A stretch of DNA of 45,288 nt, from sequence record NC_073323.1, one strand, 5' to 3'. The notes below the pieces were generated by a model. That model had not been told where the DNA came from. It was given only the letters and a program-made list of their open reading frames with translations, and searched no databases. Positions within the stretch are counted from its first letter, which is position 1; each line of letters begins with the position of its first letter. The position numbers were made by a program, and so were the translations under genes. Shown piece by piece: positions 2,756 to 42,202 of this stretch. The stretch comes from Escherichia phage vB_EcoS-phiEc3.

Positions 2756-2777
2756 AGCCCCGAAAGGGGCTTTCTTA
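2756..2777 (+). terminator. Intrinsic terminator-like hairpin (AGCCCC-GAAA-GGGGCT plus T-rich tail)
   Basis: GC stem with GNRA loop followed by TTCTTAT after portal stop. Confidence 0.45.
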
Positions 2778-2781
2778 TAGT

Positions 2782-3858
2782 ATGCTATTAACTTTAGCGC
2801 CACAGGGTTTATCTATGAGCTTACTTACATCCCTAATCAGCCATCAGATATGGCTGCAACGCACCGCATCCGGTGAGGTGAAAGACCTCACGCCGTTCAT
2901 TCAGGAGATAAGGGATGAAATCAAACGGCAGGTGCTGTTATTCGGTGACGACGGTCGCAGCACTGCGCGACTGAATAAACTGTTACGCGACCTGGAAGAA
3001 GCACTAACCGGTATTACGGGTGACTGGCAAACAAAGCTAACAGACGACCTTAAGGAACTGGCGGCGTACGAGGCTGAGTGGAACGTAAAGACACTGACCG
3101 CCAACGTAGACGCGGAATTTGTTACGCCTACCGCTGAGCAGGTATGGGCCGCTGCCGAGTTTCAACCATTATCATTGAGCGACAAGCCCGTTGATTTCAC
3201 CAAGCTGATGTCTGGATGGGGCGAAACGGAAGTAGCACGTCTTGTAACTGGAGTTAAGATGGGCTTTGTGCAAGGTCAAACCACACGGCAGATTGTTAAG
3301 AATGTTGTTGGCGCTGGTGGACTAGCCGACATCTCAGAACGTAACGCGGCTACGGTAATCCGCACCGCGCTGTCCCACGTATCCAACGAGGCCCGTAACG
3401 AGACGTACCGCCAGAACGACAACATCATCGAGAAGTACGAGTGGGTGTCAACGCTTGACAGCCGCACCAGTACGATTTGCAGGGTCAGAGACGGGATGAC
3501 GTGGGAAATTGGTAAGGGGCCGATGCCCCCAGCCCATCCGAACTGCCGGTCGTGCACGGCTCCGGTAATCAGTTCCGAGTTCGACTTCCTCGATAAAGGC
3601 GCAAAACGCGCGGCTAAAGGCGCGGAAGGTGGCACTCAGGTAAGCGCAGACACCACTTACTACGAGTTCCTTAAACAACAACCGGCGTGGTTTCAGGACC
3701 AGGCGCTCGGCCCGGTGCGAGGTAAGATTTTCCGTAACAGCGGTATATCGCCGGAAGAGTTTCGCGTAATATCTGTAGATGGTTTCGGGAATCCGCTCAC
3801 GCTTAAGCAGATGGCGGAACTCGATAAACGTGTTGCTGATTATCTGAAAGGGGATTAA
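2782..3858 (+). CDS. Head morphogenesis protein (minor head protein, SPP1 gp7/Mu F-like)
   Basis: 358 aa ORF following portal; start may be internal ATG at 2815. Confidence 0.6.
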   Translation: MLLTLAPQGLSMSLLTSLISHQIWLQRTASGEVKDLTPFIQEIRDEIKRQVLLFGDDGRSTARLNKLLRDLEEALTGITGDWQTKLTDDLKELAAYEAEWNVKTLTANVDAEFVTPTAEQVWAAAEFQPLSLSDKPVDFTKLMSGWGETEVARLVTGVKMGFVQGQTTRQIVKNVVGAGGLADISERNAATVIRTALSHVSNEARNETYRQNDNIIEKYEWVSTLDSRTSTICRVRDGMTWEIGKGPMPPAHPNCRSCTAPVISSEFDFLDKGAKRAAKGAEGGTQVSADTTYYEFLKQQPAWFQDQALGPVRGKIFRNSGISPEEFRVISVDGFGNPLTLKQMAELDKRVADYLKGD

Positions 3859-4319: not shown

Positions 4320-4323
4320 TAAA

Positions 4324-4349
4324 AGGCCCCATTAAGGGGCCTTAGTTTT
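4324..4349. terminator. Bidirectional intrinsic terminator (GGCCCC-ATTAA-GGGGCC flanked by A and T runs)
   Basis: Perfect GC stem, AAAA upstream and TTAGTTTT downstream, between convergent genes. Confidence 0.6.
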
Positions 4350-4552
4350 CAACGGAATCTTGTGTTTAAATCCTGCTCGTGGACGACCCTCAGAACAGTG
4401 TCATAATCCCCGTATCTTCCAGGTTCAAATACATCTAATGCCTTGTAAGCAGACATTGCGTCAGGGAAAACCTGCAGAACCTTTTTAACACGGCACAAGT
4501 CACCGTCGAACTCTTCATCGAACTCTTGAACTACTTCGCAAATTGCATACAT
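4349..4552 (-). CDS. Hypothetical protein, 67 aa, opposite-strand insert in head module
   Basis: ATG start, own minus-strand promoter at 4580-4608, ends at bidirectional terminator. Confidence 0.55.
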   Translation of the reverse strand: MYAICEVVQEFDEEFDGDLCRVKKVLQVFPDAMSAYKALDVFEPGRYGDYDTVLRVVHEQDLNTRFR

Positions 4553-4579
4553 TTTTCACCTCCTGCTTAAGTTAACTGA

Positions 4580-4608
4580 ATAGTACCCTATTATATTGGG
4601 GTGTGCAA
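4580..4608 (-). promoter_or_regulatory. Sigma70-like promoter TTGCAC-17-TACTAT (conserved element copy)
   Basis: -35 at 4603-4608, -10 at 4580-4585 on minus strand; 33-bp core repeated near-identically at 13949-13977 and 37708-37736. Confidence 0.5.
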
Positions 4609-4674
4609 ACTATTTATTTACTTATTCCAGTTATTCCGCTCAATTGTAAATGTTGGAATAAACTATTCGAATAG

Positions 4675-4703
4675 TTGACTTTTCACTAAAAATATGATAA
4701 GCT
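4675..4703 (+). promoter_or_regulatory. Sigma70-like promoter TTGACT-17-TGnTAAGCT (extended -10)
   Basis: Conserved with 37399-37427; 17-nt spacer, TG at -15/-14. Confidence 0.5.
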
Positions 4704-4707
4704 CCAC

Positions 4708-4817
4708 CTGAGCTTGTGAAGTATGAACAAGCGACCGCGGCGCTGGCAGGTAACGGAGCGGGACGTAAGTCCTGAGTGTAGTTACGCTGACGCGTTCGGA
4801 AGGGCCATACTCTATTG
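4708..4817 (+). ncRNA. Candidate structured leader RNA, copy 1
   Basis: Paralogous to 37431-37541; three helices supported by compensatory changes; no conserved ORF. Confidence 0.5.
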
Positions 4818-4883
4818 CTTGTGTAAAAAGTAACAGGTTTACTTAGATTACGCCGTTTCTATGTTTAAATGATAAGGACTAGC

Positions 4884-11666: not shown

Positions 11667-11692
11667 TAAGGCCCCGAAAGGGGCCTTTTTCT
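11667..11692 (+). terminator. Intrinsic terminator (GGCCCC-GAAA-GGGGCC then TTTTT)
   Basis: Perfect 6-bp GC stem with GNRA loop and T run. Confidence 0.7.
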
Positions 11693-13906: not shown

Positions 13907-13948
13907 AACATAACTCCTGATTTGAGATAACATCGTTGGTGTAAGTGA

Positions 13949-13977
13949 ATAGTACGCTATTATATTGGGGAGTGCAA
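13949..13977 (-). promoter_or_regulatory. Sigma70-like promoter TTGCAC-17-TACTAT (conserved element copy)
   Basis: Same 33-bp core as 4580-4608; drives minus-strand cassette; plus-orientation -10 TATATT overlaps. Confidence 0.5.
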
Positions 13978-14084
13978 GTAGTGTGCTAGAATAATTTTGC
14001 GCCTAGTGTCGCACACGAAAAGCGGGTGGTTCCCGTCTGGCGCATTTCCTTTAACCAGTAACCTCTTAACCAAAGGATTAAAGA

Positions 14085-24056: not shown

Positions 24057-24082
24057 TAAGGCCCCAAACGGGGCCTTTTCTC
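24057..24082. terminator. Bidirectional intrinsic terminator (GGCCCC-AAAC-GGGGCC then TTTT)
   Basis: Between convergent structural and replication modules. Confidence 0.7.
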
Positions 24083-26152: not shown

Positions 26153-27089
26153 TTACCGCCCCCATGAATGCCTTTATAAATTCAGCGGCTACTTGCGGGA
26201 CGATGGCATTGCCGTAACCGCGCAATCGTCCCACTCTGGCGGGTATCCCATTAGCCAGCGGGAATGCGCCGGGTTCAACTGGCCGGAATTTTCCATCCCG
26301 GCAGCCGAGCCAGTCAGCATCTGACCAGAAGCCGTGATGCGAATTGGTTGCGTTATCGCCGCTGCTTGTGCCACGTCTTGAGGTCCACCCTTCCTCTGAA
26401 TCTCCGATAGTGCCCCCTCTAGTGTTCTCACGTTCTTTTCCCCGTCCGCACTGCGAGGAGTAGGCCAATTCGTCAGTTTTAGCCCCTGTTCCGTTGAGTA
26501 GTCCAGCCTGTCGAATGTTCTGTCCTTCCCGTCCTTGCGGATAACAGTCTCTCCGCTCCCTTTGTAATCGTTCGCGGTCGGTGTCGGCCAATTCGTGCGC
26601 ACCAAAGAAGAGTCGTTCTCTTTTGTGCGGAGCGCCGACGCTACAAGCTGGGAGTACGGCAAACCCGACGGCGTAGTCTTCTCCTTCCAGGTGAGTTTGT
26701 AAATCGCACATCCACGATTTTGCAATTGCTGGCGCAACCTGCTCCCCAAAGAGGACTGGAGGGTGGCACTCGCTGATGAGGTCAAGGAATACGGGCGCGA
26801 GGTGTCTCGGGTCGAACTGTCCGAGTTGCTTTCCTGCCGTGCTAAACGGTTGGCAAGGCGGGCTTCCCGTCCAGAGAGGCGTATCTTCCGGAACTCCCGC
26901 AAGTCTGAGCGCGAGAGGCCAGCCGCCGATACCAGCGAAAAAATGACACTGGGTGAATCCGTCGAGGTCTTCTGGCTTAACTTCAGTAATGCTTCTTTCA
27001 TCTACAACTCCAAAAGGTATGTGACCCTGTTTTATTAATTCACGCAGCCACGCGGCTGCGCCTTTATCCCATTCGTTGTAATAGTTCAT
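26145..27089 (-). CDS. DNA (cytosine-5)-methyltransferase with apparent frame discontinuity
   Basis: Motifs I FAGIGG, IV PCQPFS, VIII PHKRERLFF and X YGNAIVPQV in this frame; motif IX and TRD-like repeats lie in overlapping frame 26189-27001. Confidence 0.6.
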   Translation of the reverse strand: MNYYNEWDKGAAAWLRELIKQGHIPFGVVDERSITEVKPEDLDGFTQCHFFAGIGGWPLALRLAGVPEDTPLWTGSPPCQPFSTAGKQLGQFDPRHLAPVFLDLISECHPPVLFGEQVAPAIAKSWMCDLQTHLEGEDYAVGFAVLPACSVGAPHKRERLFFGAHELADTDRERLQRERRDCYPQGREGQNIRQAGLLNGTGAKTDELAYSSQCGRGKERENTRGGTIGDSEEGWTSRRGTSSGDNATNSHHGFWSDADWLGCRDGKFRPVEPGAFPLANGIPARVGRLRGYGNAIVPQVAAEFIKAFMGAVNE

Positions 27090-27277
27090 TTTGCCACCAG
27101 AACTAACTCTTTACGCCCGAACGCCGTAACGTTACCGGTTACATCTTCGATAACCAGTTTACCGTTCGACTCGACGTACACCGTATCAACGGCAACAGGC
27201 CGACGGGTCTTAACGTTGAAAATCATGTCGCCAGGTACGATGTCACGTGCTGGTTTGCGGTCATATTCGTGTTTCAT
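27086..27277 (-). CDS. Hypothetical protein, 63 aa
   Basis: ATG with AAGGAA RBS, downstream of promoter at 27311-27339. Confidence 0.5.
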   Translation of the reverse strand: MKHEYDRKPARDIVPGDMIFNVKTRRPVAVDTVYVESNGKLVIEDVTGNVTAFGRKELVLVAK

Positions 27278-27307: not shown

Positions 27308-27595
27308 CTAACTATAATAGTTCGCTATTAGGGCGTCAACCTGTTTAAACGAACCAACGACAAAAACATTAGCACCACGCTTACGCATCCGCTCGTGCTC
27401 CCGTAACTGGTGTGGATCCGGCTTCGTGCTTTCGTCTTTCTTTATCTCGACGAACCAGATGACGCCGCCGGGGAGAATTACCAGCAGGTCAGGGGCGCCG
27501 GAACGTCCTTCGTAGGAAAGTTTACGAACGAGGCCACCAATGGCCTCGAATCGGTCTTTTGCGTATTTCTGTATTTTGCCCTCAGGCGTACTCAT
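27308..27595 (-). CDS. VRR-NUC domain nuclease
   Basis: Motif VIWFVEIKKDESTKPDPHQ (PD-(D/E)XK-like); ATG at 27595 after GAGGGG (track starts at GTG 27631). Confidence 0.6.
   Translation of the reverse strand: MSTPEGKIQKYAKDRFEAIGGLVRKLSYEGRSGAPDLLVILPGGVIWFVEIKKDESTKPDPHQLREHERMRKRGANVFVVGSFKQVDALIANYYS
27311..27339 (-). promoter_or_regulatory. Sigma70-like promoter TTGACG-17-TATAGT with AATAG-N4-CTATT dyad in spacer
   Basis: Same architecture as 31071-31099 and 33982-34010. Confidence 0.5.
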
Positions 27596-30342: not shown

Positions 30343-30365
30343 AAAAAGGCCCAATGAAGGGCCTT
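30343..30365 (-). terminator. Intrinsic terminator (AGGCCC-loop-GGGCCT, T run on minus strand)
   Basis: Hairpin with AAAAA on plus strand downstream of SSB-like gene. Confidence 0.55.
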
Positions 30366-30384
30366 AGTTAAACAGATTCAGATA

Positions 30385-31017
30385 TTAACCACGGCGACGA
30401 CGTTCGCGGCGCGGTGCTTCATCTTCTTCGTCGTCTTCCAGGTCGTCGGTGCTCGCTACTACACTGGAGCCGCCGAAGCGTTTACCTTCGCCCATATACT
30501 TGATGCCGAGGATGGTAGCGCACAGGTTTTTCCAATCTTTGTGCCACCATAATTCTACAGATACGTTTGCGATACATCCGCTATATACCTGCTCGCCTTC
30601 TATTTCTTTCCCGTCGATGTTGAAATCAGGTTCGGTTTGTTTTTCACCTTTAGCCGATGTCATAATCACCGGTTGGCGGTTGTTTGTAGCGCGGAAATAC
30701 AGACCTTCTTCAAAATCCTCAATCGGATTATCTCGCATTGCCAGGTCACGGACGCAGCATTTGTCTGCGTGGTGGTCTACACCGTAGTTGGCCTTCATCC
30801 ATTTCTCGGCAGCAGCGGCCCCGATTGCATCTGTTACAACTTCCAACGCGGTGTCGTAAAGCGCATCAATTTGAGGATGGTCAGGCTGCATAAGAACAGT
30901 AACCTGATACTTACCCTTAATCAGTTTACCGGTTTTCTTGTCCTCAGAGTCGGCGGCACGTTCAAATACGTTAACCCAAGCAGTGTTTACTTTACGCAGA
31001 TTCAGTTTAATACCCAT
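30385..31017 (-). CDS. Single-stranded DNA-binding protein (T7 gp2.5-like, acidic tail)
   Basis: Acidic C-terminus DDLEDDEEDE and overall gp2.5-like layout; own promoter and terminator. Confidence 0.5.
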   Translation of the reverse strand: MGIKLNLRKVNTAWVNVFERAADSEDKKTGKLIKGKYQVTVLMQPDHPQIDALYDTALEVVTDAIGAAAAEKWMKANYGVDHHADKCCVRDLAMRDNPIEDFEEGLYFRATNNRQPVIMTSAKGEKQTEPDFNIDGKEIEGEQVYSGCIANVSVELWWHKDWKNLCATILGIKYMGEGKRFGGSSVVASTDDLEDDEEDEAPRRERRRRG

Positions 31018-31070: not shown

Positions 31071-31099
31071 ACTATAATAGCTAACTATTCATGTGTCAA
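31071..31099 (-). promoter_or_regulatory. Sigma70-like promoter TTGACA-17-TATAGT with AATAG-N4-CTATT dyad
   Basis: Perfect -35, 17-nt spacer. Confidence 0.55.
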
Positions 31100-33725: not shown

Positions 33726-33953
33726 TTACTCGCCGTCGCCTTCTGTAAGGCTATCGTCTATTAATTCAAATTTACCGTTTGGGTGTTGAATAGCTTCTTG
33801 CCCGCAATGGTCGCAGACAACAAGTTTATCGAACCCATCAAACTCGTCCCCGACTACGCAAGAAAGTACAAATTTATGTTTTGTGCACACTTCCTGCGAT
33901 TCTCCGAAAATTACCCGGAAACATTTAGTTATAGCTCCAGTGATTATGTTCAT
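33726..33953 (-). CDS. Hypothetical Cys-rich small protein
   Basis: C...C...CDHC pattern; first gene downstream of promoter at 33982-34010. Confidence 0.5.
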   Translation of the reverse strand: MNIITGAITKCFRVIFGESQEVCTKHKFVLSCVVGDEFDGFDKLVVCDHCGQEAIQHPNGKFELIDDSLTEGDGE

Positions 33954-33981: not shown

Positions 33982-34010
33982 ACTATAATAGCGAACTATT
34001 CACTTGTCAA
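33982..34010 (-). promoter_or_regulatory. Sigma70-like promoter TTGACA-17-TATAGT with AATAG-N4-CTATT dyad
   Basis: Perfect -35, 17-nt spacer; divergent from HTH gene. Confidence 0.55.
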
Positions 34011-34014
34011 TGGG

Positions 34015-34043
34015 CTTTTCTAAAATAATTAATATGGTACTAT
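34015..34043 (+). promoter_or_regulatory. Candidate promoter for HTH gene (TACTAT -10, weak -35)
   Basis: -10 TACTATTCA matches conserved element; AAGGAG RBS at 34061. Confidence 0.3.
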
Positions 34044-34074
34044 TCACACATCAACTGACTAAGGAGTAATTGAC

Positions 34075-34290
34075 ATGCAACCATCCGAACTAGGCATCCG
34101 TGTAGAGCAACGCCGTAAAGAACTCGGCATCTCCCAGCGCCGTCTGGCTGTCCTGGCCGGTGTCTCCCAGGGCGCAATTAACCAGCTGGCTCTCGGTGTA
34201 ACTCAGGACGTCCGCCCGGCAACGTTGTTTAAACTGGCGGAAGTGCTGGAAGTAGACGCTAAGTGGCTGGCGTTCGGTGAAGGGGCTTGA
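34075..34290 (+). CDS. XRE-family helix-turn-helix transcriptional regulator
   Basis: HTH pattern LGISQRRLAVLAGVSQGAINQL; own RBS and terminator; opposite strand to neighbours. Confidence 0.7.
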   Translation: MQPSELGIRVEQRRKELGISQRRLAVLAGVSQGAINQLALGVTQDVRPATLFKLAEVLEVDAKWLAFGEGA

Positions 34291-34306
34291 CGCCCCTTTC
34301 TTTTTA
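34281..34306 (+). terminator. Intrinsic terminator (AGGGGC-TTGAC-GCCCCT then T run)
   Basis: Overlaps HTH stop codon; TTTCTTTTTAT tail. Confidence 0.6.
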
Positions 34307-34501
34307 TTGCACCTTTATCGGGTATCTTTTGCGAAACTTACCTAACCCGCAGTACACGCTGTAAGCCTCTGTGTAACTGAACACAACATGATACCCGCGC
34401 CCATAAGGAACTACGTTAAGAACTTCTACTACTTCGCCTCTGTGGTTGGTGTATTTATTACCTTTCAGTTCGTCGCTTACTTCTTTAAATTTACCGCTCA
34501 T
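34304..34501 (-). CDS. Hypothetical protein, 65 aa
   Basis: ORF coupled downstream of primase-helicase. Confidence 0.45.
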   Translation of the reverse strand: MSGKFKEVSDELKGNKYTNHRGEVVEVLNVVPYGRGYHVVFSYTEAYSVYCGLGKFRKRYPIKVQ

Positions 34502-36777
34502 TCCAAATCCTCCTCTGTCACTGTCAACATTTCATTCGGTTCGTATATTGTCTTTGGAATCTTGTTATCAGTTATTCTGGTGTTCAGCCTGTAACGACCT
34601 GGGATTATCTGATTGTTTTCGTCAGTACCCGGAACAAGATACCCAGCCTCAACCATTTTCTTAATCTTCCCGCGTTCTATGGCTTCTTTGGAGTTAAACG
34701 CCTTTGCGTTGGGGTCAGACTGCGCGAGCTTATTCGCTGCGGATACCGTGATGCCCTCGTTGCCGTTGTAGGTCCCCTCCGCCAGTTCAAACGCCGCGAG
34801 TATCGTGGCCTCGGAACTGTTGACGGCGTTCTCTATGGTTTTACGTACATTTTGTTTACCTTCGTTAGTTAACCCTTCTTCCCTCTCTTTCTCCTCGTCG
34901 GTCTTGAATGGCTCGAAGCCCCACGGCATCAATACAAGCGCCTTGTGCGGCTCAGGCAGGTCGAGGTTTACTATTGTGCCGTATTCCTCTGTGCTACCGA
35001 GGAACTCAACCGCGCGGTACTCTTTCGGCGGCGGTGCTTCACGGAACTGTACAGACTCCAGTACCATGCCAACCGTCTTCTGTTGAGGACCGTGCTTAAA
35101 TTTAGAGTGGTATACGTTTATCTGACGGTCGGTAGCGCGTTCGATTGTCAGTTCCACGTCGACACCCGCATACAATGCTCCACTGCCGCGGGCTTTCTTT
35201 CCGCCCTTCGGAGTATGGTGAACGACACCGACAGCGGCTTTAGTTGCATCGCGCACTTCTTTCAGGATGGCGATAACTTTACCCATACCGATTGCCGTTG
35301 ATGAACTGTTCTCGTCGAACTTATCAATCGTCAGGGCCAGCGTCTGGTTAAGGGTGTCGAAGGCAACCATGCCAATAGGTTCATCCCCTGCGGTTTCGCG
35401 CATCCTGCGGATTAGAGCTGGAATTTTTTTATCACCATGCGTAGCGAGTATTTCGCCCATATCGATGACATGTACATAATCTTTACCTTCCTCGCCATAT
35501 TTAGCCGCGAGTGCATCAATACGTGTTCGTGTAGCTGCACCACCCTCGCCGTCAATATAGAAATGGTGGCAACGTTGGGTGTCAGCCCCCGCAAACCGGT
35601 ACCCGGCGGCGCTCAGGTACATCATCCCCAGCGTATAGAATGATTTGTACGTGCCGGATTCCCCGACAATATCCCAGATACAATCCGACGGCATGTACCC
35701 CTCAACGACGAAATCAGCCTTTACCGGTTCTGGTAACTCGTCCTCTTCTTCAAGGTCTTCCAGGTCGTCGAGGCTGCATGAGACAGATTCACGCGCCCCC
35801 CAACCGATGGCCTCTGCGACTTCACTGAACGGCAGCCCGGTCGCATCGCACGCGTACTTCCACACCTCTTTCGGTGACAGGCCTTCTGTCGCCGTAATGT
35901 CTGTGTCGTGAATCATGGTTACGTTTGGCGCTTCATACCCCTCGCGCGGGAAGCACAGCAGGAAGTCGTCCGGGCGCGGTGTCGGGTCGCTGTAGTTTTC
36001 GGCATGTTCCGGTGTGGCTGGCATCTTAAGGCCGCGCGGCGTCATGACGCCGCCGTACTCAAACGCCAGTGCTTCAAACGCGTCTGTAAACGCGGTGCGC
36101 AGTTCTTCCGGTATCTGGTAATCCGATGCGCTGCTAACGTCAACGGCTGGGATGCCTTCCAGTAACTCGTTCGGGTCGATCAGGTCGTTGCGGCGCGACC
36201 AGATAACGGTAGCGCCGACCGGCGGCAGGTACATCGGCTGCGACAGAGTGAACCCGCTGCGGTCAGCGCCCATGCCTTCGAAGAAGTGCTCCAGCAAGCC
36301 ATGACGAACACGGATGATGTCGCCGCCTTCAACCGGGCGGCTCAGCGGCATGACGACGCGAAAGCGCGGTGACTCATCGGTATGTGATGCCGTGGTGTAG
36401 AGACACATCGCCCGGCGGCTGCGATTAACCAGGCGCACCGCTTCCTGGTACTCTTCCGGTGTTGCACTGTCGAAGTCCAGATACGCCAGCGACGATTTGC
36501 TCACAGACGCGTCACAGCGATAGAAGAAGCCTTTACGCGCTTGCTTAAAGTCACCGGTTTCCGGGTCTTTTACAGTGCTGTGCGCAGAGTCGCACGCGGC
36601 AGTAATATAGCCTGGCGCTGTCTTCGGGTTGATCCCGTCACGAACAGCATCGAGCGGCTGGATTAACTCTTTCAGGTCATCCAGTGTTGCCGTGTGTGTG
36701 GTTCTGACGTTTATATCCTTTTTCTCTGCCCGCGCGTTGCGACGTGACCACGAGTAGGATAAAATTACATCGGACAT
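34498..36777 (-). CDS. Primase-helicase (prim-pol-like N-terminus, RecA-like NTPase C-terminal half)
   Basis: YLDFDS and TASHT motifs N-terminally, P-loop-like GESGTYKS, 759 aa. Confidence 0.6.
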   Translation of the reverse strand: MSDVILSYSWSRRNARAEKKDINVRTTHTATLDDLKELIQPLDAVRDGINPKTAPGYITAACDSAHSTVKDPETGDFKQARKGFFYRCDASVSKSSLAYLDFDSATPEEYQEAVRLVNRSRRAMCLYTTASHTDESPRFRVVMPLSRPVEGGDIIRVRHGLLEHFFEGMGADRSGFTLSQPMYLPPVGATVIWSRRNDLIDPNELLEGIPAVDVSSASDYQIPEELRTAFTDAFEALAFEYGGVMTPRGLKMPATPEHAENYSDPTPRPDDFLLCFPREGYEAPNVTMIHDTDITATEGLSPKEVWKYACDATGLPFSEVAEAIGWGARESVSCSLDDLEDLEEEDELPEPVKADFVVEGYMPSDCIWDIVGESGTYKSFYTLGMMYLSAAGYRFAGADTQRCHHFYIDGEGGAATRTRIDALAAKYGEEGKDYVHVIDMGEILATHGDKKIPALIRRMRETAGDEPIGMVAFDTLNQTLALTIDKFDENSSSTAIGMGKVIAILKEVRDATKAAVGVVHHTPKGGKKARGSGALYAGVDVELTIERATDRQINVYHSKFKHGPQQKTVGMVLESVQFREAPPPKEYRAVEFLGSTEEYGTIVNLDLPEPHKALVLMPWGFEPFKTDEEKEREEGLTNEGKQNVRKTIENAVNSSEATILAAFELAEGTYNGNEGITVSAANKLAQSDPNAKAFNSKEAIERGKIKKMVEAGYLVPGTDENNQIIPGRYRLNTRITDNKIPKTIYEPNEMLTVTEEDLE

Positions 36778-36835
36778 GTTGTATTTCCTTCAGCAAATAA
36801 TTTGGCCTCGGCGTTCACCGCGTCGGGGCTTTCTT

Positions 36836-37126
36836 TTATCTTTTAGCCAGACATTCCATCAAATGTGCGTACTTACGATAATAATCTGCGACAATCTCAT
36901 CACCGAAATACTGATAAACGTAGGATAGGTGGTCGGAGACATCGATGGAAGCCGACATTGTGCTGAGTCTTCTTAGACTAATCGACTGCAATTCTTCTGT
37001 AACGCAAAACGGCAAATATGAGTCCAGTTTACAGGAAACGTTAAAACACAACGCATACTCACCTTGCACTAAATAGACCATATAAGCACTGTCATTTTCT
37101 TTATCGTGGAAAATTACACCTTTCAT
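36836..37126 (-). CDS. Hypothetical protein, 96 aa
   Basis: ORF in leftward early operon. Confidence 0.45.
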   Translation of the reverse strand: MKGVIFHDKENDSAYMVYLVQGEYALCFNVSCKLDSYLPFCVTEELQSISLRRLSTMSASIDVSDHLSYVYQYFGDEIVADYYRKYAHLMECLAKR

Positions 37127-37293
37127 TTCACGTTCTCCTTAATCCACGCTTCAACTTTATTACGGTCAAATGTTCCTGGTAAACGGCGCCCCATTACTTT
37201 AACGCTGCAATCAGGAAACTTTCCACTCTTAATCCAGTTATTGATTGTCTGGCGGGTGACGCCGATTAATTCTGCAACTTCATTGATAGTCAT
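37123..37293 (-). CDS. AlpA/excisionase-like HTH DNA-binding protein
   Basis: Motif MTINEVAELIGVTRQTINNWIKSGKFP; ATG at 37293 after AGGAG (track extends to 37383 via TTG). Confidence 0.6.
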   Translation of the reverse strand: MTINEVAELIGVTRQTINNWIKSGKFPDCSVKVMGRRLPGTFDRNKVEAWIKENVK

Positions 37294-37322: not shown

Positions 37323-37351
37323 AGTATAAGGCGGTAACTTTGTAAAAGCAA
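37323..37351 (-). promoter_or_regulatory. Sigma70-like promoter TTGCTT-17-TATACT (leftward early)
   Basis: 17-nt spacer; 8-bp inverted repeat TAACTTTG/CAAAGTTA at 37335-37342 and 37365-37372. Confidence 0.45.
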
Positions 37352-37398: not shown

Positions 37399-37427
37399 TT
37401 GACTTTTACTTGAAAATATGCTAAGCT
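37399..37427 (+). promoter_or_regulatory. Sigma70-like promoter TTGACT-17-TGnTAAGCT (rightward early)
   Basis: Conserved with 4675-4703. Confidence 0.5.
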
Positions 37428-37430
37428 TCA

Positions 37431-37541
37431 CTGAGCTTGTGAGATATCGCAAGCGACCGCGGAGCGGCAGGGAACGCAACGCGTGCCATTAGGCACTTGA
37501 GTGTAGTTCCGCTGACGCTTTCGGAAGGGTCAAAGTCTATT
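37431..37541 (+). ncRNA. Candidate structured leader RNA, copy 2
   Basis: Paralogous to 4708-4817 with compensatory substitutions in two helices. Confidence 0.5.
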
Positions 37542-37609
37542 GTTAATCCCGCCTAAATATCCAAGTCACTGATAATTAAAAGTTTCTATAGTTGCCGTGA
37601 GCAAGGTAG

Positions 37610-37666
37610 AGAGTACTTCACTCCGCTGGGGTGGGCTAAAGCCCACCCGCTGCGTTGCGTACTCTT
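37610..37666 (+). terminator. Extended stem-loop, terminator/attenuator-like
   Basis: Inner GGGTGGGC-TAAA-GCCCACCC closed by AGAGTAC/GTACTCT, then TTTAAAG. Confidence 0.35.
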
Positions 37667-37707
37667 TAAAGAAACAAAAGAATCACAACGGCAACGTAAC
37701 TATTCTC

Positions 37708-37736
37708 TTGCACACCCCAACATAATAGGATACTAT
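37708..37736 (+). promoter_or_regulatory. Sigma70-like promoter TTGCAC-17-TACTAT (conserved element copy)
   Basis: Same core as 4580-4608 and 13949-13977; AGGAG RBS follows. Confidence 0.5.
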
Positions 37737-37770
37737 TCACTTATCGGAACGAGACAGAGGAGTGATGGTT

Positions 37771-37956
37771 ATGTTTAAGAAGGGTCAGTTGGTTAAAACA
37801 AAACGCGGCGGACAGTACGTAATAGTTACCCAGAATGAGGATGAATATAGTACCGCTGTAGACGTATGGGGTCTTGTACGAAAGAAACATGGTTACGCTT
37901 TCAGAGATAATTTAACACTCATCGGCAACAATTTTAAATTCAAAGGGGTGAAGTGA
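37771..37956 (+). CDS. Hypothetical early protein, 61 aa
   Basis: ATG 9 nt after AGGAG; track ORF begins at GTG 37762. Confidence 0.5.
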   Translation: MFKKGQLVKTKRGGQYVIVTQNEDEYSTAVDVWGLVRKKHGYAFRDNLTLIGNNFKFKGVK

Positions 37957-38684: not shown

Positions 38685-38718
38685 TGTTCAATAGTTTAAG
38701 ATTTTACTGAGTGACTTA

Positions 38719-38746
38719 CGCTGCTACACAGCAGCGTATCATTTTT
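38719..38746 (+). terminator. Intrinsic terminator (CGCTGCT-ACAC-AGCAGCG then T-rich)
   Basis: 7-bp stem followed by TATCATTTTTCT. Confidence 0.6.
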
Positions 38747-38992: not shown

Positions 38993-39021
38993 TTGCACAC
39001 TAAGATAGAATAGGCTACTAT
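38993..39021 (+). promoter_or_regulatory. Sigma70-like promoter TTGCAC-17-TACTAT
   Basis: Contains GAATAGG-N-CTACTATTC dyad. Confidence 0.5.
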
Positions 39022-39052
39022 TCATTTACACAAACTAGAGGAGAGACAGAGG

Positions 39053-41555: not shown

Positions 41556-42021
41556 TGGACTGCATTTCACCGCCGCGTTCGAGGGGTTCCGTGGTACTGC
41601 ATATCGTGCTACGCCAAATGAGAAGTACCTGACTATTGGGTACGGTCATTATGGGCCAGACGTAACGCCAGGCAAGACCATCACCCCCGGACAAGGCCTC
41701 CTGTTACTGAACCGTGATATGGCTAAGGCTGTAGCTGCTGTTGACGCAGCAGCACACCATTCATTGACACAGGCACAGTTCGACGCTGTTTGCGACCTGG
41801 TCTACAACGCAGGTGCTGGTGTGATTGCTGCTACTACCGGCACGGGTAAGGCACTGCGTTCTGGTGATATTGCAACGCTGCGGGCTAAGCTGGCGCTGTT
41901 CATCAACCAGAACGGCAAACCGATACTTGGACTGCGTCGTCGTACCGCCGGTCGTCTGGCGCTGTTCGACGGTAAACCGTGGCAGGAGGCTGAGGCTATC
42001 GGGCGCGCGGTGAAAGGTTGA
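41533..42021 (+). CDS. Endolysin, lysozyme-like (GH24-type)
   Basis: Motif GLHFTAAFEGFRGTAYRATPNEKYLTIGYGHYG; GTG start 8 nt after GGAGG. Confidence 0.7.
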   Translation: MSRNISDNGLHFTAAFEGFRGTAYRATPNEKYLTIGYGHYGPDVTPGKTITPGQGLLLLNRDMAKAVAAVDAAAHHSLTQAQFDAVCDLVYNAGAGVIAATTGTGKALRSGDIATLRAKLALFINQNGKPILGLRRRTAGRLALFDGKPWQEAEAIGRAVKG

Positions 42022-42117: not shown

Positions 42118-42202
42118 ATCTATTTTCTGTGATGACGAGTTGACTATTATCCTCGACCCTATTATATTTACTTCATCGACAACGAGAACGGAGTAGAGAG
42201 AA

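Follow-up and report, generated by a model that had tools for sequence, protein, structure and literature searches.

The genome of Escherichia phage vB_EcoS-phiEc3 (NC_073323.1), the whole 45,288-bp stretch of which is called the window here, carries a family of sigma-70-type promoters that share a 14-bp dyad, AATAG-N4-CTATT, lying in the core of each promoter and aimed at the gene downstream. It is very likely that this dyad serves as an operator for a dimeric protein encoded by the phage itself, and sequence comparison suggests that the operator, present in eight promoter cores, is probably bound and repressed by a dimer of a 71-aa protein of the XRE family. The sites, their promoter context, their conservation and variation between lineages, as well as the identity and position of the XRE gene, were computed directly.

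The window is the essentially complete genome of a virulent E. coli siphovirus, a Kagunavirus of the subfamily Guernseyvirinae, and its two halves are 99.8% and 98.8% identical to Escherichia phage vB_Eco_K-01, while identity to Golestan, phiEc4 and others is 90-96%. Positions 1-24053 hold the rightward structural genes, with two short inserts of leftward orientation among them. The genes for replication and recombination are read leftward, from 37383 to 24216, and small early genes, lysis genes and the terminase follow rightward from 37771.

The exact dyad occurs seven times in the window against 0.04 expected, a number attained by none of 100 shuffled sequences, with copies starting at 4579, 13948, 27316, 31076, 33987, 37724 and 39009. 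The looser core AATA-N6-TATT occurs eight times (0.70 expected), the additional copy being AATATGGTACTATT at 34031, before the XRE gene. Four of the sites coincide with exact copies of TTGCAC-17-TACTAT (0 expected), at 4580-4608 and 13949-13977 on the minus strand and at 37708-37736 and 38993-39021 on the plus strand; we refer to this architecture as class 1. Class 2 is TTGACR-17-TATAGT, found at 27339-27311, 31099-31071 and 34010-33982, all on the minus strand, and these are the three best promoter-like scores in that half of the window. With scores of 10-11 out of 12, the TTGACA/G-17-TATAGT promoters have what is expected of a sigma-70 promoter, that is, both hexamers, a spacing of 16-18 bp and a gene downstream. 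Every dyad site is followed by a ribosome binding site and a start codon 20-60 nt downstream, in the direction of the promoter. At the homologous sites of the annotated phage Golestan, in which 6.4% of the genome is non-coding, seven of nine are wholly non-coding, and the remaining pair extends over the 3' end or last codons of the gene upstream.

These counts bear out the initial annotation, which had described a family of at least eight promoters with a dyad of two 5-bp arms spaced by 4 bp, the size of a dimeric helix-turn-helix (HTH) operator, overlapping the spacer/-10 region. All of its coordinates were right to within 1-2 bases: its class 1 sites (4577-4608, 13946-13977 and 37708-37739) and its class 2 sites (27311-27339, 31071-31099 and 33982-34010, all minus) were recovered, and the two sites that it listed as related, 38993-39024 and 34025-34046, hold the exact dyad at 39009, with TTGCAC-17-TACTAT, and the core dyad at 34031, respectively. 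The 33-bp class 1 core was given as beginning with AGTG, but ACTG is read at 4575, and the division into three classes is better replaced by two architectures plus variants.

The dyad does not occupy a fixed place within these promoters. In class 1 it begins 10 nt past the -35 hexamer and spans about -19 to -6, and the -10 hexamer is made of the right half of the dyad plus two central bases (TA|CTAT|T). In class 2 the dyad covers about -25 to -12: 4 nt separate it from the -35, and its last base is also the first of the -10 (TATAGT). A third register is found in the immunity-gene promoter of the Jerseyvirus Ent1, where the dyad lies 7 nt from the -35 and the -10 is TATTAT. Both classes have in common the 20-mer TGAATAG-N4-CTATTATA, placed in opposite orientations relative to transcription. 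Its symmetry, its variable register (4, 7 or 10 nt) and the occurrence of its flanks in either orientation speak for an operator and against a polymerase recognition element. The promoter of the XRE gene itself, read directly from the sequence, has an extended -10, TGgTACTAT (34035-34043), and no good -35; the single departure from AATAG at 34031, G to T, supplies the TG of this extended -10 and leaves the AATA-N6-TATT core intact. The arrangement differs from that of T4-type middle promoters, as a good -35 is present in all but one of the eight promoters and the dyad overlaps the -10 or the spacer, which is a position that blocks polymerase rather than recruits it.

Conservation in related phages resembles a footprint. 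Among ~100 unique class 2 copies, collected from 35 Kagunavirus genomes or loci, neither the -35 nor the half-sites vary at all, and the central 4 bp and the flanks do. The comparison was extended to eight Guernseyvirinae genomes, with counts set against shuffle expectations, and the core AATA-N6-TATT is present in six of them, both Cornellviruses having a variant. AATAG-N4-CTATT is found seven times in the window and eight in Golestan, both from E. coli, four times in Ent1 (Salmonella) and twice in the Serratia phage Tsm2. The Enterobacter phage phiEap-2 has eight copies of AATA-N6-TATT; the Pantoea phage AH01 has nine, and five copies of AATAC-N4-GTATT (0.02 expected). In the Cornellviruses St162 and VSiA (Salmonella), TATTA-N6-TAATA occurs three times and AWTA-N6-TAWT about 10 times. 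No copy of any dyad variant was found in the unrelated lambdoid phage HannyBb, used as a negative control.

The initial annotation had staked its proposal on the dyad being kept in close relatives, and orthologous promoters in other Guernseyvirinae genera do carry it, or a symmetric variant specific to the lineage. In AH01 the inner base is altered on both arms in step and the -10 goes from TACTAT to TAGTAT, a change at a position that is neutral for polymerase. Jerseyvirus and Cornellvirus share a Salmonella host but differ in their dyads, whereas Kagunavirus, Jerseyvirus and Tsm2 differ in host and have the same dyad. The variant thus follows the lineage of the phage and not the host, and the specificity therefore belongs to the phage.

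Two HTH genes were found in the window, a 71-aa HTH_3 gene (34075-34290, plus strand) and a 56-aa HTH_17 gene (37123-37293, minus strand). The former, the XRE gene, is a one-gene unit with a terminator at 34279-34299, and its product is our candidate for the dyad-binding repressor. The protein matches Pfam HTH_3 (PF01381, E 2.3e-12), and its best sequence match in the PDB is 434 Cro (71 aa; E 5.4e-7 over residues 6-68), the 434 repressor and P22 C2 being matched as well. A single-sequence AlphaFold (AF2) model shows five helices with a predicted local distance difference test (pLDDT) value of 84, and the top Foldseek match of this model is 2cro, with a template modelling (TM) score of 0.73-0.79 and 40% identity. 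The protein accordingly has the five-helix DNA-binding domain of the HTH_3 family. It is the only one whose gene, among those for DNA-binding proteins, is present in all eight Guernseyvirinae genomes, with 38-52% identity between genera. The gene is unannotated in the nearest GenBank record, PQ435593.1, which calls a 45-aa open reading frame (ORF) on the minus strand at ~34040-34177 instead; the records of Golestan and fBC-Eco01 do annotate it.

The XRE gene and the dyad also go together in position. Among 64 IMG/VR loci around XRE homologues, all 44 with an XRE of Kagunavirus or Jerseyvirus type have 1-6 exact dyads and the other 20 have none, and an exact dyad stands 88-89 bp upstream of the XRE start in each of 33 loci of Kagunavirus type. 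In the window the dyads at 33987 and 34031, 44 bp apart, straddle the back-to-back promoters beside the gene, and in seven of the eight subfamily genomes the XRE gene has a dyad promoter next to it, with a dyad that is exact or has a single mismatch in the core. The layout is like that of an immunity region, with the gene beside operators, divergent promoters and an operator over the gene's own promoter. Operators of phage 434 are 14 bp long (ACAA-N6-TTGT) and have four conserved outer bases per half-site, as seen in the crystal structures 2OR1 and 3CRO. They share their 4+6+4 layout with the AATA-N6-TATT dyad, a match of DNA geometry alone. The outer adenine of the 434 operator is read by Gln28; Gln32 of XRE aligns with this residue and, like the outer A of the dyad, does not vary, as judged from an alignment of five Guernseyvirinae XRE proteins.

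The eight promoters are spread around the genome. At 4580-4608 (minus), the dyad AATAGTACCCTATT (4579-4592) spans the entire -10 hexamer of a class 1 promoter directed at a 67-aa ORF (4349-4552, minus), antisense within the head-gene region. The class 1 promoter at 13949-13977 (minus; dyad 13948-13961) heads a leftward operon, from 13933 to about 11800, which codes for a superinfection-immunity protein (Pfam Imm_superinfect), an SbcD-like phosphoesterase and a polynucleotide kinase/phosphatase. This promoter is overlapped by a rightward extended -10 promoter, TTGGGG-16-TGcTAGAAT (13965-13992), and the -35 hexamers of the two overlap. On the plus strand, the class 1 promoter at 37708-37736 (dyad 37724-37737) precedes the first block of small rightward early genes, with an ATG at 37771, and a class 1 variant at 38993-39021 (dyad 39009-39022), placed after a terminator at 38717-38738, precedes the block of small rightward genes that comes next, beginning at about 39053.

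The class 2 promoters all serve leftward units. That at 27311-27339 (TTGACG-17-TATAGT), in which the dyad at 27316-27329 takes up spacer positions 5-18, is followed by an ORF at 27086-27277, a DNA methyltransferase and a helicase. The one at 31071-31099 (TTGACA-17-TATAGT; dyad 31076-31089) lies before a Gp2.5-like single-stranded DNA-binding protein (30385-31017) and DNA polymerase, and the one at 33982-34010 (TTGACA-17-TATAGT; dyad 33987-34000), back-to-back with the XRE promoter, before an ORF at 33726-33953 and the exonuclease/recombination genes downstream. The operator-like dyad AATATGGTACTATT at 34031-34044 (plus) covers the -10 of the promoter that serves the XRE gene itself. A doubtful extra site, TATAGTATGCTATT at 2776-2789 (plus), has one core mismatch and no convincing -35; it is placed between the terminator of the portal gene and the head-morphogenesis gene, and PHIRE lists a site there for Golestan.

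From these results we infer XRE to be both the binder of the dyad and a repressor, and we infer the timing of its action as follows. Host polymerase would fire all eight dyad promoters upon phage entry, XRE would accumulate and bind each operator as a dimer, and the bound dimer would block RNA polymerase at the -10 or in the spacer. The units turned down would be the small rightward early genes and the three leftward replication/recombination units, together with the operon for superinfection immunity, the SbcD-like protein and the kinase/phosphatase, the 67-aa ORF and, finally, XRE itself through its extended -10 promoter. Promoters that have no dyad would escape this control and keep firing. 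They are found at 37351 (minus; TTGCTT-17-TATACT), which serves the HTH_17 and primase-helicase unit, at 4675 and 37399 (plus; TTGACT-17-TGnTAAGCT), and at 42018 and 42140 (plus), after the lysis genes.

Several observations weigh against XRE as the repressor of these promoters. When XRE proteins from six lineages are aligned, the residues of the recognition helix separate neither the AATA from the ATTA operators nor the G from the C type, and the link between protein and operator is thus one of lineage, with no readable residue code. The Serratia phage Tsm2 has dyads elsewhere in its genome and none beside its XRE gene, and the operator adjacent to the Jerseyvirus XRE gene has a core mismatch (CGATT). 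The right half-site overlaps a -10-like sequence (CTATT/TATTAT/TACTAT), and some of its conservation may be due to promoter constraint. RNA-seq of the Kagunavirus K1B4, sampled over 5-120 min, places most genes in a 'middle' class (PMC12645636); its time points are too coarse to reveal a shut-off and its gene numbers are not mappable with certainty. The same study lists gene 008, 'Helix-turn-helix domain', as early, one of only four early-peaking genes, and gene 004, 'specific DNA binding', as middle (PMC12645636), and by gene order these are probably HTH_17 and XRE, respectively.

The lack of a residue code and the Tsm2 XRE gene with no dyad beside it would also be expected if the operator belonged to another phage protein, either a small uncharacterised early protein or the AlpA/excisionase-like HTH_17, and the early-peaking K1B4 gene may, by its order, be HTH_17. 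We regard this as unlikely. Pfam scans of 20 ORFs, which included part of the small early ORFs, returned only the HTH_3 of XRE and HTH_17 as DNA-binding domains, and the 14-bp 4+6+4 geometry specifically suits the 434 Cro family. HTH_17 and excisionase-type proteins are not typical binders of symmetric sites as dimers, and tblastn finds the HTH_17 gene in Kagunavirus and Jerseyvirus only, leaving AH01, phiEap-2, Tsm2 and Cornellvirus with dyads but no such gene. Of the three binders named by the initial annotation, the AlpA-like protein is therefore set aside, as is the HTH-like N-terminus of the metallophosphoesterase, for which Pfam gave no match in that region at E <= 0.01; XRE, present in all eight genomes, similar to 434 Cro and flanked by dyads, fits.

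The initial annotation had left open whether the family reflects a common phage regulator or a distinctive promoter specificity, and the former is the better explanation of our results. A specificity element, read by an RNA polymerase of the phage's own or by that of the host after redirection by a phage factor in the manner of T4 MotA/AsiA, could account for PHIRE picking the dyad 20-mers as 'phage promoters' in Golestan and fBC-Eco01, as well as for conservation that reaches past the hexamers. It would, however, be expected to be asymmetric and fixed in distance, and the dyad is symmetric and appears in three registers, within promoters that already have near-consensus -35 and -10 hexamers at 17-bp spacing. 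No RNA polymerase or sigma gene was found among the ORFs of the window. ORFs of more than 400 aa showed no similarity to RNA polymerase, and all but one were assigned other functions (terminase, portal, tape measure, tail protein, tailspike, helicase, polymerase, exonuclease, primase-helicase and phosphoesterase), the sole unassigned one, which is annotated as hypothetical and has no Pfam match, being a 472-aa ORF within the block of tail genes. A specificity element consequently seems quite improbable. About as improbable is the binding of a host transcription factor, which would couple early phage transcription to host physiology: all the hosts are Enterobacterales, but the variant of the dyad tracks the phage (two genera from Salmonella differ and three genera from different hosts agree), and we know of no E. 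coli regulator with this consensus. Finally, the family could need no separate regulator and consist of duplicated promoter cassettes in which A/T-rich -10 regions are intrinsically symmetric, as in overlapping divergent promoters. Members of a class are near-identical across ~33 bp, part of the -10 is formed by the right half-site, and the promoter at 13965-13992 does overlap the leftward one at 13948. Even so, an opposing promoter is plausible at this class 1 site only, the spacer half-site AATAG, where sigma-70 has no base preference, is invariant in ~100 unique copies whose neighbouring positions drift, and the half-sites of AH01 and Cornellvirus change together, which leaves this as the least probable of the explanations considered.

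Repression by XRE would be a familiar mechanism, since what we propose is a classic Cro-type repressor and operator, put to use by a virulent phage for early shut-off across its genome. XRE resembles 434 Cro (likewise P22 Cro/C2) as a ~70-aa five-helix HTH_3 protein, 434 Cro being its best match in both sequence and fold. In both systems the 14-bp operator is conserved in the 4-5 outer bases of each half-site, varies in its centre and overlaps sigma-70 -10/-35 elements, and the gene is divergent beside its operators with its own promoter autoregulated, as proposed here. Unlike 434, the phage studied here is virulent and, by annotation, has no cI partner, integrase or lysogeny module. Neither a cI-length repressor nor an integrase was found among the annotations of K-01, Golestan, Ent1 and the other subfamily genomes, and a lambdoid immunity switch would need a cI partner and an integration/lysogeny module, whereas the sole other HTH protein here is the 56-aa HTH_17. 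The operators are also single and scattered over eight promoters, unlike the two tripartite clusters of 434 (OR1-3 and OL1-3), and the half-site is AATA in place of the ACAA of 434, with binding predicted here.

A single repressor acting on genome-wide operators that overlap or follow promoters, as we propose, recalls P1 C1 and the 'stoperators' of mycobacteriophage L5 gp71. Their operators, of 17 bp and 13 bp, are asymmetric, unlike the symmetric dyad, and those repressors belong to other families and maintain lysogeny, unlike in this non-lysogenic phage. Controller (C) proteins such as C.AhdI, C.BclI and C.Esp1396I, which are among the fold matches of XRE, are small XRE-family dimers that bind short dyads overlapping promoter cores and autoregulate, and the promoter at 27311-27339 heads a unit that contains a methyltransferase. 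C-boxes have a GACT-N3-AGTC-type consensus. They are paired at a single promoter, however, and here there is no restriction endonuclease partner and the regulon would be genome-wide.

The repeat itself has been published before. Seven PHIRE 'conserved promoter sequences' were listed in Golestan before ORF3, 7, 23, 48 (twice), 54 and 59 (Table S4, PMC7203180), and seven 'Phage RNAP promoters' with the consensus tgAATAGTa-ccTATTat-T in fBC-Eco01 (Table S2, PMC9825357). The sequences listed are the same sites at homologous positions, and neither paper mentions the dyad, its overlap with sigma-70 hexamers or a regulator (PMC7203180, PMC9825357). The label 'phage RNA polymerase promoters' is without basis. 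Our literature search found no functional studies of promoters or repressors in Jerseyvirinae or Guernseyvirinae. Phages of the genera Kagunavirus and Jerseyvirus, widely isolated for use in therapy and biocontrol, have been proposed as small chassis for engineering, and the timing of their genes has so far been undescribed. The present analysis offers a hypothesis for early shut-off in a virulent siphovirus. It also gives engineers eight characterisable and probably repressible promoters, of host type and with a built-in operator, along with one candidate repressor, and the operator variants (AATAG, AATAC, ATTA) with their diverged 434-Cro-like proteins form a series for the study of specificity change in a classic fold.

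A further non-coding element is duplicated in the window. Its two copies of ~150 bp, at 4675-4820 and 37399-37545 (both plus), are ~80% identical, and each consists of the strong promoter TTGACT-17-TGnTAAGCT and a leader of ~110 nt (4710-4820 and 37434-37545). Both leaders fold in the same way, into a small hairpin and a long stem-loop, and compensatory pairs (CG/AU/UA and AU/GC/UA) are seen among ten unique versions taken from related phages; no match to the leader was found in Rfam. Each copy heads a long rightward unit crossed by several terminators, which suggests that the leader may be a put-like antitermination RNA. It is conceivable, although we consider it unlikely, that the Guernseyvirinae run their temporal programme with no phage polymerase or sigma factor, combining a 'Cro-only' timer that would shut early, replication and immunity promoters with put-like leader RNAs that would carry polymerase through terminators into lysis and structural genes. 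Under such a programme XRE bound at 13948 may also help the overlapping rightward promoter that leads into the tail genes, and virulent phages would offer, in operators that drift symmetrically from genus to genus, a natural series of repressor/operator co-evolution.

Other RNA features and partial sites were noted near these promoters. A match to the Rfam int-alpA RNA (RF02996) lies at 13996-14060 (plus), just after the promoter at 13965-13992, in the interval that separates the immunity gene from a tail assembly chaperone gene; its 36.6 bits are slightly above the gathering score of 35.8. Between the promoter at 37399 and the class 1 promoter at 37708 there is a stretch of ~260 nt with no convincing ORF (37445-37700), which ends in a GC-rich hairpin at 37625-37650, GGGGTGGGCTAAAGCCCACCC; the corresponding place in the Jerseyvirus Ent1 is a gap of 1 kb. 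An everted CTATT-CG-AATAG is found at 4661-4674, just upstream of the -35 of the 4675 promoter. The 42140 promoter, TTGACT-17-TATATT (42135-42168), has a half-site only, with CTATT abutting the -10, and its homologues in Ent1 and Golestan have AATAG or ACTAG directly 5' of the -35.

The primase-helicase block (34304-37293) is leftward in Kagunavirus and Jerseyvirus, with the HTH_17 gene at its head; the block has the opposite orientation in Cornellvirus, AH01, phiEap-2 and Tsm2, which lack the HTH_17 gene, and there it directly follows the XRE gene on the downstream side. The Gp2.5-like gene (30385-31017, minus) is mosaic, as its protein is 100% identical to that of EF2-1 and ~63% to those of Golestan and most Kagunaviruses by tblastn, whereas the flanks of the gene are ~90% identical. 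Lastly, a recurring bidirectional terminator, AAGGCCCC-N4-GGGGCCTT, at 4323-4343, 11668-11687, 24058-24080 and 30346-30368, marks junctions between rightward and leftward gene blocks and accounts for the second commonest dyad of the genome.

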